The notes under the pieces were generated by a model. The model searched no databases and had not been told where the DNA came from. It saw only the letters and a program-made list of their open reading frames with translations. From a virus, in IMG/VR virus record IMGVR_UViG_3300045988_155139: a DNA stretch of 64,000 bases; one strand, 5' to 3'. The position numbers and the translations under genes were made by a program. The number at the start of each line of letters is the position of its first letter. Position 1 is the first letter of the stretch. Shown piece by piece: positions 30,993 to 32,179 of the stretch.

Positions 30993-31547
30993 GTGGAAAT
31001 TTTACAAATACTATTATTAGGACAAATATCTGAGGCAATATTTATTTCTTTATTTATGATATTTGTCAAAAACATTAGAACTAAACGATTACTATTTACA
31101 ATAATAATGATAATCGAGTATTTGTTACTGATGTCATTATTTGCTTACAATTGGATGTTTCATATACTATTCATGATTATAGTTTATATAACTTTAAAAG
31201 TGCTATATAAAGACAAAGCCCAAATAACTGATGTGTTTATATTTGTCATTAGTTATATTCTAATAATTATTAGTAGTTTTATATGCGTAGTAGCATTTAA
31301 TGTGAATATGGTCATTGCTAGTATAGCAAATAGACTTTTGCTATTTATTCCATTGTTAGCATTAAATTATAAGCTAAATTGCATACAAAAAGTCTACAGA
31401 AAATATCGGAATAGAAATGACAAGATTAAAAAGAAAATGAAATCAATTACTTTTAGAGGTTTAAACGTCGTAGTATTTAATTTATTGTTTACGATAATAA
31501 ACATTGGTATGTTAGTTGCAACATATTACAATAATTTTATAAAGTGA
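30993..31547 (+). CDS. polytopic membrane protein (5-6 TM)
   Basis: 184 aa, almost entirely hydrophobic helices, basic loop KYRNRNDKIKKKMK; GTG start. Confidence 0.5.
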   Translation: MEILQILLLGQISEAIFISLFMIFVKNIRTKRLLFTIIMIIEYLLLMSLFAYNWMFHILFMIIVYITLKVLYKDKAQITDVFIFVISYILIIISSFICVVAFNVNMVIASIANRLLLFIPLLALNYKLNCIQKVYRKYRNRNDKIKKKMKSITFRGLNVVVFNLLFTIINIGMLVATYYNNFIK

Positions 31548-31606
31548 GGTGATTTTTATGTGGCCAAGTATATTCTGGTTATGGTCTGTAAAGGACGGTG
31601 AGTAGT

Positions 31607-32179
31607 ATGAAGGTAAACAAAGAAGCTATTCAAGCTATAATCTTCAATGTTGCTGAGACAGCCTTAATATTTCTAATTGGTTTAACATTAGGATTAGAAA
31701 TGGTCAATATACTTATTCTTATGTTTGTATTCATGATAAGTAGAGGCTGTTTTGGCACTACTCTTCATTTCAAAGAATGGTATAAGTGCTTAGTTTGGAG
31801 TTCATTGATATTGTTTAGCTTATTTACAGTTTTAAAAGTTAGTTTACCAATCTCCATTGTATTTACAATATTTGGAGCATTTATTATGACTGGAAAAGCT
31901 AACGTCAATGATTTATATCTTTGGAGTAGAAAAGATGAGCCAAGTAAATACCAAGACATTCTGGATTTCATTAAATATAATGAACTAGATGATAAACTTT
32001 TGGAGTTTGAAGAGAAGATTAAGAAAAGAGATAATAGAGAATATTTAATCTACAAGTATAGATTTAAAGAGGGTCGAACGTTTGCTGAAATCTCCAAATT
32101 ATTGGACATGAAAGGACCCAGAATAGCTCAACACTTAGAGAAAATTGCTTTTGCAATGAGACTCTATTGTGGAATTTAA
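31607..32179 (+). CDS. membrane-anchored sigma-70 region-4-like HTH protein
   Basis: N-terminal 3 TM helices; C-terminal EYLIYKYRFKEGRTFAEISKLLDMKGPRIAQHLEKIAFAMR resembles sigma-70 region 4. Confidence 0.5.
   Translation: MKVNKEAIQAIIFNVAETALIFLIGLTLGLEMVNILILMFVFMISRGCFGTTLHFKEWYKCLVWSSLILFSLFTVLKVSLPISIVFTIFGAFIMTGKANVNDLYLWSRKDEPSKYQDILDFIKYNELDDKLLEFEEKIKKRDNREYLIYKYRFKEGRTFAEISKLLDMKGPRIAQHLEKIAFAMRLYCGI

Follow-up and report, generated by a model that had tools for sequence, protein, structure and literature searches.

In the agr systems of staphylococci, clostridia and Listeria, the small precursor AgrD is matured by the membrane cysteine peptidase AgrB, whose invariant catalytic dyad, His77 and Cys84, removes the AgrD tail and forms a thiolactone via an acyl-enzyme; R70 of Staphylococcus aureus AgrB is a proposed contact for that tail (PMC10482373). 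An agrB-agrD-agrC cassette is also carried by phage CDMH1 (phiCDHM1, HG531805). Here we describe a module of three consecutive genes in the IMG/VR virus record IMGVR_UViG_3300045988_155139 (64,000 nucleotides, the whole of which is called the window below): open reading frame (ORF) A, a micro-ORF and ORF B, followed by a dyad operator and a three-gene operon. In our reading, to which we give about one chance in two, the module is a streamlined, agr-derived one-component peptide circuit that would control the adjacent operon, the pheromone-processing enzyme being itself the transcription factor; the parts that we infer are catalysis and the site of cleavage, export and sensing of the peptide, binding as a dimer, and the direction in which the promoter is regulated. 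The module looks like a relative of agr without an earlier description in the literature searched, where, besides phage CDMH1, no fusion of AgrB to a helix-turn-helix (HTH), no leaderless AgrD and no gut-phage agr-like module was found; that coverage is incomplete and is no proof of novelty. The features are as follows.

30993-31547, + strand: ORF A, a polytopic membrane protein of 184 amino acids (aa) with about six transmembrane (TM) helices
31558-31605, + strand: micro-ORF of 15 codons, MWPSIFWLWSVKDGE, previously unannotated, with its own ribosome-binding site (RBS), GAGGTGA
31607-32179, + strand: ORF B, 190 aa
31607-31894, + strand: AgrB-like four-helix peptidase core, ORF B residues 1-96 (predicted)
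31742-31744, 31766-31768 and 31787-31789, + strand: codons of Arg46, His54 and Cys61
31895-31951, + strand: juxtamembrane linker, ORF B residues 97-115, modelled with low confidence
31952-32179, + strand: sigma-70 region-4-type HTH, ORF B residues 116-190 and stop codon, predicted to be cytoplasmic
32177-32209, + strand: strong intrinsic terminator closing the operon of ORF B, a 10-bp stem and then a T-run
32225-32235, + strand: dyad operator TAGTC-c-GAATA (4 of 5 pairs), centred at about -39, the putative site for a dimer of the B HTH
32233-32238, + strand: -35-like hexamer ATAACA, overlapped by the dyad
32257-32262, + strand: -10 hexamer TATAAT with an upstream TG; TA.AAT is invariant in the alignment
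32297-33550, + strand: putative regulated operon of three genes, for a 149-aa protein, a 72-aa ORF that overlaps it, and a Cys-rich protein of 216 aa with a single TM helix
33598-33622: terminator of the three-gene operon

As in agr and the CDMH1 cassette, the module combines a membrane cysteine-peptidase core with the order Arg...His-x6-Cys and a Pfam AgrB match, and a tiny adjacent precursor gene whose product has a Ser or Cys nucleophile, then four hydrophobic residues, and at its C-terminus a tail that can be discarded. Like the CDMH1 cassette, it is phage-borne in a Firmicute setting, and the AgrD of CDMH1 also uses Ser (SVWYI). It differs from agr in having only the N-terminal four AgrB helices, the remainder being replaced by a predicted DNA-binding domain; in its leaderless precursor, which has an acidic tail of 6-7 residues instead of about 14 and no AgrD profile match; in its gene order, with precursor before enzyme; and in a new six-TM partner protein. 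Neither an AgrC kinase nor an AgrA LytTR regulator was found among the window ORFs scanned (replication, packaging, lysis and structural genes; some small ORFs lay outside the scan), and the A family contains no long members carrying a kinase.

An earlier note on this DNA, made from the sequence alone, had pointed to ORFs A and B, and both are present as it described them. It had rightly taken B to be membrane-anchored, residues 1-96 being predicted as transmembrane, but its three N-terminal helices become four in our prediction (residues 5-27, 32-48, 55-75 and 80-94), and it overlooked the AgrB-like domain, the 15-codon gene and the downstream dyad operator. Residues 8-92 of ORF B align to positions 26-109 of the 185 positions of PF04647 (AgrB), scoring 26.8 bits from the ATG start and 27.8 bits from an alternative GTG start, past the gathering score of 23. 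The same Pfam match was obtained at E <= 0.01 for 116 of 120 B homologs (best 3.1e-8), and an NCBIfam AgrB-like model matched ORF B with an E value of 1.4e-4. With the NCBIfam AgrB equivalog NF002210, ORF B scored 21.7 against a cut-off of 282, so far under it that the protein is not an equivalog of canonical AgrB. The B family as a whole comprises 616 matches of constant length, about 190 aa. Arg46, His54 and Cys61 are invariant in the 120 close homologs and are kept in divergent ones at 41-49% identity, for example as R-x7-HY-x5-C, and in an hhalign comparison they fall on the R, H and C of the annotated CDMH1 AgrB. The AgrB pattern of a His and a Cys six residues apart, with a conserved Arg upstream, is thus retained. 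If the C-terminus of B is cytoplasmic, the catalytic loop would be cytoplasmic too, as in current AgrB models. The evidence points to the membrane part of ORF B being the catalytic half of an AgrB-type peptidase, and not a mere anchor.

The fusion of the peptidase core to the HTH is kept in every intact full-length copy of B. At some loci (L027, L028, L043, L044, L045, L048 and L049) the B frame is interrupted or truncated, with products of 105-130 aa or premature stops; these broken copies may be pseudogenes or assembly errors, and the module may at times be lost.

Between A and B, an equivalent micro-ORF of 13-22 aa is found at the corresponding position wherever a related locus includes the upstream sequence; this covers about 50 loci drawn from IMG/VR, metagenome-assembled genomes of GTDB and ENA, and in addition an independent metagenome contig set. 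The consensus is x-W-[D/N]-S-W-F-W-[I/L/F]-[F/Y]-[D/S/N]-x-E-[E/D]-G-E-stop, that is, a nucleophile (Ser, rarely Cys or Thr), four hydrophobic residues, [F/Y/C] and an acidic tail of 6-7 residues ending in Gly-Glu. With the exception of L023, which ends in EE-stop, all of the micro-ORFs end in GE-stop. Counting in a fixed register from the stop, Ser is found at position -12 in 39 of 44 loci (AGY codons in 32, TCN in 7) and is followed by hydrophobic residues at -11 to -8; the remaining five loci have Cys (L037), Glu, Asn, Asp or Trp at -12. By eye, a tail one residue shorter fits exceptions, which puts Ser at the nucleophile position of L020, L034 and L049, and Thr at that of L042. Several variants have a Pro two residues past the ring (Y-N-P-E, F-S-P-E, Y-D-P-T), as clostridial and listerial AgrDs also do.

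Codons vary synonymously within the micro-ORF (all four codons are used for Gly, and alternate codons for Glu, Phe, Tyr and Asp), which indicates selection at the amino-acid level. The distance from the micro-ORF stop to the B start ranges from 1 to 33 nt, and because the Gly-Glu ending is kept at 1-nt and 33-nt gaps alike, it is not merely the Shine-Dalgarno sequence of B. A nucleophile followed by four residues and a C-terminal tail, encoded at all loci by the gene just ahead of B, match the layout of AgrD, and we interpret the micro-ORF as a leaderless AgrD-like precursor. The predicted ring in the window is Ser4-Ile-Phe-Trp-Leu8, leaving the tail WSVKDGE; cleavage after Leu8 would then yield the Ser4 lactone (f)MWP-cyclo(SIFWL). 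Lactone autoinducing peptides (AIPs) are already known (PMC10482373).

The AgrD of phage CDMH1 (L054, HG531805, 26176-26289; TTSVWYINQPKMPKSL) contains no Cys and has Ser at the ring position (SVWYI-NQP), implying a lactone rather than a thiolactone pheromone.

These same genes could be read in another way, in which B is a membrane-anchored transcription factor, its AgrB-like segment is a remnant anchor or dimerisation module, and the micro-ORF is a regulatory upstream ORF, a device for translational coupling or an arrest peptide tuning B, with neither substrate nor signal. At many loci the micro-ORF stop lies 1-3 nt ahead of the B start, and there the last codons, GGA GAA/GAG, double as the Shine-Dalgarno sequence of B. 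The conserved C-terminal Gly-Glu-stop and the Trp-rich core also recall arrest peptides, of which TnaC is an example, and both the lack of an AgrD profile match and the loss of the C-terminal part of AgrB speak for this reading. An anchor, however, would not need Arg46, His54 and Cys61, which stay invariant from 78% down to 41% identity. Similarly, GE-stop is retained at gaps of 12-33 nt, the peptide gene has a strong RBS of its own, and the Ser, Cys or Thr at ring position 1, the four hydrophobics and the acidic tail fit the chemistry of AgrD. As described below, the peptide also co-varies with A and the membrane domain of B more than with the HTH. On balance, we consider that a remnant anchor preceded by a regulatory ORF is unlikely.

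The partner of B in the membrane would be ORF A, as the earlier note had supposed of the 184-aa upstream protein. A is an obligate syntenic neighbour, always directly upstream, and the A-peptide-B block is strictly conserved. The family includes 156 homologs (207 clusters by exhaustive profile search), with full-length members of about 170-192 aa and no fusions to other domains. In the AlphaFold2 model, A forms a bundle of about six TM helices, with a predicted local distance difference test score (pLDDT) of 84 and a predicted template-modelling score of 0.79. The invariant residues are E14, A15, F21, K26, K69, Y72, D80, F82, Y135, N140, T153 and R155, and conserved residues are mostly located in two basic cytoplasmic loops, YKEKAQITD and YKKxWNRNDKIKKKMKSTTFR. 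It was not possible to find a Pfam domain, a profile relative or a fold relative for A, and it shows no similarity to AgrC, AgrB or B.

The linker that joins the two halves of B is strongly conserved (D102, Y104, W106, E111, S113, K114 and Y115). Its pattern, N-I-x-D-M-Y-L-W-x-N-x-x-E-P-S-K-Y, weakly resembles an invariant cytoplasmic loop of A (31377-31440), I-Q-x-x-Y-K-K-x-W-N-R-N-D-K, with an hhalign E value of 0.016, which is not significant; the resemblance may reflect a shared interaction motif.

For the C-terminal part of B, the earlier note had proposed sigma-70 region 4. In the AlphaFold model of ORF B, built on 120 sequences, this helical domain is modelled confidently (pLDDT about 90), and its closest folds are indeed sigma region 4 domains, some of them crystallised with protein partners (WhiB1, anti-sigma factors and G1 ORF67). 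The proposal stands as to the fold; the profile check, however, stayed below threshold, with 14.8 bits for Pfam Sigma70_r4 (PF04545; cut-off 24.1, E 0.02), 17.8 for TIGR02937 (cut-off 42.9, E 0.002) and E 0.004 for PHROG sigma-factor families, and none of the 120 B homologs matched a sigma region 4 profile at E <= 0.01. The note was right that regions 2 and 3 are missing: ORF B has no match to them in Pfam, NCBIfam or PHROGs, its residues 1-96 are transmembrane, and without these regions it cannot be a sigma factor. A sub-threshold match to Pfam TBPIP_C in the helices preceding the HTH (41 of 120 B homologs, best E 3e-4) was treated as compositional, since all the fold matches there are to sigma region 4.

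B differs from sigma-70 region 4, ECF domain 4 and small region-4-like proteins such as UPF0122/YlxM (PDB 1xsv) in lacking regions 2 and 3 and in being tethered to the membrane. In addition, sigma region 4 reads an asymmetric -35 element as a monomer, whereas the proposed target of B is a palindrome, which implies a dimer. In combining membrane segments with a putative cytoplasmic DNA-binding domain in one polypeptide, B is comparable to ToxR/TcpP, CadC and BcrR, with A as an accessory membrane partner, as ToxS is for ToxR, and it likewise probably binds its promoter while tethered; the support for DNA binding comes from the co-variation of operator and recognition helix described below. In those proteins, however, the DNA-binding domain is an N-terminal OmpR-type winged helix or XRE HTH, and the sensor domain or TM bundle has no catalytic residues, whereas the HTH of B is C-terminal and of the sigma region 4 type and its membrane part appears to be a peptidase core.

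The candidate target lies immediately past the terminator of B. A hairpin and T-run are found at the same place in related loci (read by eye), and these loci share an 11-bp dyad followed after 21 +/- 1 nt by a -10 hexamer. The combined score of dyad and -10 has a mean of 9.48, compared with 8.08 (sd 0.74) after shuffling. Elsewhere in the window, matches to the operator motif were at chance level and no other intergenic copy was found; for this reason, we rejected the idea that the conserved element past B is an extended phage-specific -35 recurring at late promoters. Across loci, the palindrome is kept through compensatory changes on both arms. In the window, the recognition helix of B begins P171-R-I-A-Q-H-L-E-K. 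The operators and the recognition helices found with them across loci are as follows.

TAGTC-N-GACTA: several loci
TACAC-N-GTGTA: helices T[N/Q]RIT[E/D]
TAGTG-c-CACTA: L052
ATTC-N-GAAT: helices PR[I/V]AQR and PRVAEK
TAGT-cgt-ACTA: helices [P/S/V]RIVEKL[E/D]Q
TACT-cgt-AGTA: helices ..EKIEK
TTAGG-aac-CCTAA: swapped C-terminal domain; exact in L039, one base off in L041 (TAGGA-a-CCCTG), read by eye in L040

The operator TACAC-N-GTGTA was observed in all six loci whose B has a T[N/Q]RIT[E/D] helix (L017/L073, L022, L037, L050, L078 and L079), the last three of which came from a later independent scan. Despite their common helix and operator, L022, L037 and L050 share just 40-44% pairwise identity in their membrane domains. 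Conversely, the L022 membrane domain has 73-74% identity to its counterparts in L039 and L047, two loci with other helices and operators. A natural domain swap is seen in L039-L041, where the sigma-4-like C-terminus of B (at about 4440-4585 of the locus) is replaced by an unrelated HTH-like tail (...NTIIKKECATIYSILERPLNLPPINK) and the AgrB-like domain is still 61-73% identical to the others; the regex scan did not find the corresponding operator type in L040 or L041. In partial Mantel tests over 48 distinct loci, the operator was correlated with the C-domain of B given the N-domain (r 0.24, p 0.0015) and not with the N-domain given the C-domain (r -0.11, p 0.89), and the peptide was correlated both with A given the N-domain of B (r 0.39, p 0.0005) and with the N-domain of B given its C-domain (r 0.43, p 0.0005). 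The qualitative pattern is clear: there are two co-evolving units, one of A, the peptide and the AgrB-like domain, and the other of the HTH and the operator, and they are joined at the linker of B.

This pattern bears directly on the proposal of the earlier note that B is a sigma mimic or appropriator, that is, that the region-4-like domain acts on RNA polymerase, also as a beta-flap decoy, from the membrane or once released. In its favour, the nearest folds are sigma region 4 domains, some of them seen with protein partners, and the C-terminal domain is near neutral instead of basic. The recognition helix, however, co-varies with the neighbouring DNA dyad, including in phylogenetically independent cases and in a whole-domain swap, and a protein aimed at conserved host RNA polymerase surfaces would not be expected to diversify its helix alongside a DNA palindrome. 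Action on the polymerase is, in our view, highly unlikely, and the evidence points instead to B being a sequence-specific DNA-binding regulator, probably dimeric. Such a regulator may still be freed from the membrane by a signal, as the earlier note also suggested.

L037 has the operator twice in tandem (TACACATTGTA), at about 35 and about 179 nt past the end of B. Each copy is followed after 21-22 nt by a separate -10-like hexamer, which suggests duplicated regulated promoters.

As a one-component agr-derived circuit, the module would work as follows. It would be transcribed at the end of an operon starting at about 27971 (TTGACA-17-TATCAT). The 15-mer MWPSIFWLWSVKDGE would put its Trp-rich core into the inner leaflet of the membrane, where Cys61 and His54 of B would cut past Leu8 and free WSVKDGE, and Ser4 would probably resolve the acyl-enzyme by cyclisation into the lactone (f)MWP-cyclo(SIFWL). 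Only 1-8 residues precede the conserved Ser, and because the precursor is leaderless, N-terminal processing would not be needed. The small hydrophobic product might exit the cell by diffusion, via A, or at lysis. Occupancy of the A/B membrane complex by the peptide would then decide whether the HTH of a B dimer sits on the operator near -39, so that the promoter at 32257 is switched and the operon at 32297-33550 is set by the local density of infected cells, with activation and repression both possible. In a stronger version, B would be pheromone synthase, receptor and transcription factor in one, with A tuning specificity and a dimeric sigma-4 domain flipping on and off the operator. Because the AgrB-type reaction can also run backwards, a lactone arriving at the cell could re-acylate Cys61 and would then be a covalent ligand. 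We regard this stronger version as improbable.

The peptide may also be aimed outside the module altogether. B would in that case mature a product that acts on host agr receptors, by interference or activation, or that is membrane-active or bacteriocin-like; A would be an exporter or immunity protein, and the HTH would couple the cassette to the operon without any sensing. Phage CDMH1 offers a precedent, as its phage-borne agr genes are thought to act on host signalling (PMC4124054), and foreign AIPs are well known to cross-inhibit agr (PMC10482373). The window ORFs examined included no AgrC/AgrA-type receptor, and the peptide sequences are diverse, as pherotypes are. What is hard to explain in this way is the permanent fusion of peptidase and HTH in every intact full-length copy, if the two activities are unconnected; moreover, recombination swaps HTH and operator as a unit and the fusion is retained. 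An outside target seems doubtful to us.

Several points weigh against the agr-derived circuit. ORF B does not have the full-length six-TM architecture of AgrB (about 185-200 aa): the C-terminal approximately 75 positions of the AgrB profile are absent, with the linker and HTH in their place, and the missing region includes K139, which contacts AgrD in a molecular-dynamics model of the S. aureus protein (PMC10482373). Furthermore, AgrD containing Ser is not processed by S. aureus AgrB (PMC10482373). The micro-peptides have no amphipathic N-terminal leader of the AgrD type (about 20-25 residues), and four extended versions of 22-28 aa, used because the 15-mer itself is under the length minimum of the tool, gave no match to the AgrD profile (TIGR04223 / PF05931) up to an E value of 10; the CDMH1 AgrD, run as a positive control, was detected at 1e-11. 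The likeness of B to sigma region 4 is sub-threshold at the sequence level, and a search of PDB sequences with the B family profile returned chance matches only (rhodopsin, NADH dehydrogenase and TBP-interacting protein). The C-terminal domain has a mean net charge of -1.1 and a pI of about 5.9, values that are uncommon among DNA-binding domains. Shared ancestry (phylogenetic non-independence) influences the co-variation statistics, and the operators were called automatically, with evident miscalls at L009, L012, L019 and L078. The role of A is a guess, since it has no detectable relative, and the proteins of the operon have no functional assignment and no Pfam match passing its cut-off. Finally, the phage appears virulent, and for such a lifestyle the gain from density sensing is hard to see.

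The last point also separates the module from arbitrium (AimP/AimR) and the phage RRNPP systems. There, as here, a short phage peptide and its cognate regulator are adjacent and diversify together like dialects. Those systems, however, have soluble TPR receptors, their peptides are Sec-exported, processed outside and re-imported, and they mostly serve lysogeny control in temperate phages; none of this is seen in the module.

If the circuit reading is true, a precursor of 15 residues without a leader and one half of AgrB are enough for agr pheromone machinery, an enzyme that matures a peptide can be wired straight to DNA by fusion to a sigma-4-type domain, bypassing kinase and response regulator, and peptide dialects are diversifying in phages of gut and rumen Firmicutes that are apparently lytic. 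Were the synthase-receptor-regulator version also true, a private, dialect-forming census of nearby infections would set the expression of a late operon in virulent gut and rumen phages. No agr-derived circuit with a single component would have preceded it, and it would be the first case of peptide communication in non-temperate phages. At about 1.3 kb and with one operator, the module is a small system for studying substrate recognition and cyclisation by AgrB, which are still structurally unresolved, and its specificity pairs (recognition helix and operator; peptide and membrane proteins) can be mined as orthogonal parts. Even without signalling, the micro-gene and the helix/operator code are new annotations for a widespread lineage of uncultured phages.

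With respect to the regulated operon, its 216-aa product is the likeliest output of the circuit, since its gene closes the transcription unit that follows the operator. It belongs to phrog_16490 (no functional annotation), and a homolog with 25-63% identity is located downstream at most related loci with sequence there. The protein (32900-33550) contains a single TM helix and a long Gln-rich stretch that resembles a coiled coil, along with two CCC motifs and the C-terminal sequence GTCGCGCGF. We considered it as a holin and rejected this, since a Dp-1-type holin adjoins the endolysin. The 149-aa and 72-aa ORFs (32297-32849) overlap by 116 nt in different frames, and their homologs (e.g., in L001) do not overlap; the copy in the window may have a frameshifted or extended end. 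Among the PADLOC defence models, no match was obtained for A, B or the other downstream proteins, and the 72-aa ORF had only a sub-threshold match to LmuA (E 0.007, 13.9 bits).

The window is a low-GC phage genome with nearly all of its genes on the + strand, including those for DNA polymerase, primase, helicase, ligase, thymidylate synthase, terminase, portal and a tape-measure-like protein, together with seven tRNAs. No integrase was found among the ORFs scanned, and the phage is apparently virulent. The carriers of the module form one lineage of low-GC phages, roughly 60-80 kb, from rumen and gut metagenomes; contigs of 180-213 kb with the module also occur. The INPHARED phage collection contained neither a DNA nor a protein match, so the lineage is known solely from metagenomes; an exact-protein contig look-up with protein B of the window also gave no match. 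As for phage CDMH1, its gp38, a "putative sigma factor" adjoining agrC, was considered as a link between agr and sigma-4 domains and dropped, because it reads, by eye only, as a Cys4 zinc-ribbon protein.

ORFs A and B close a gene block that lies downstream of the lysis genes and includes three tail-fibre-like genes, with a gap of 25 nt between A and the preceding gene. The features upstream of the module are as follows.

26583-26798: Dp-1-type holin
26858-27940: endolysin
27971-27976: TTGACA, followed by a 17-nt spacer and TATCAT, the promoter-like site of the block ending in B

The three tail-fibre-like proteins (28023-30967) share repeat modules: KAIPNKVL occurs twice in the first, and the second and third share D-A-T-A-x-A-x-D-I-x-x-x-K-T-A-Y-V-N-G-E-K. 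They match only patchily across related loci, which points to mosaic receptor-binding proteins. The seven tRNA genes (Met, Thr, Cys, Gln, Trp, Tyr and Ser) are clustered at 23190-24050, with the head-morphogenesis region on one side and the gene for a DHH phosphoesterase on the other; the cluster includes tRNA-Trp, and the micro-peptide of the phage is Trp-rich.

The earlier note had placed the A-B pair just before the late capsid promoter. A promoter does lie just downstream, but it heads the three-gene operon, and the major head gene is located 2.5 kb beyond the terminator of B, with a strong promoter-like site of its own at 34497-34525. No Rfam match was found between 30500 and 34800, which covers the leader of about 190 nt (34532-34716) between that promoter-like site and the major head gene. 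This leader contains a long and very stable hairpin at about 34581-34690, with a folding energy of -54.4 kcal/mol compared with -29.3 +/- 3.8 in shuffled sequence (z = -6.7).

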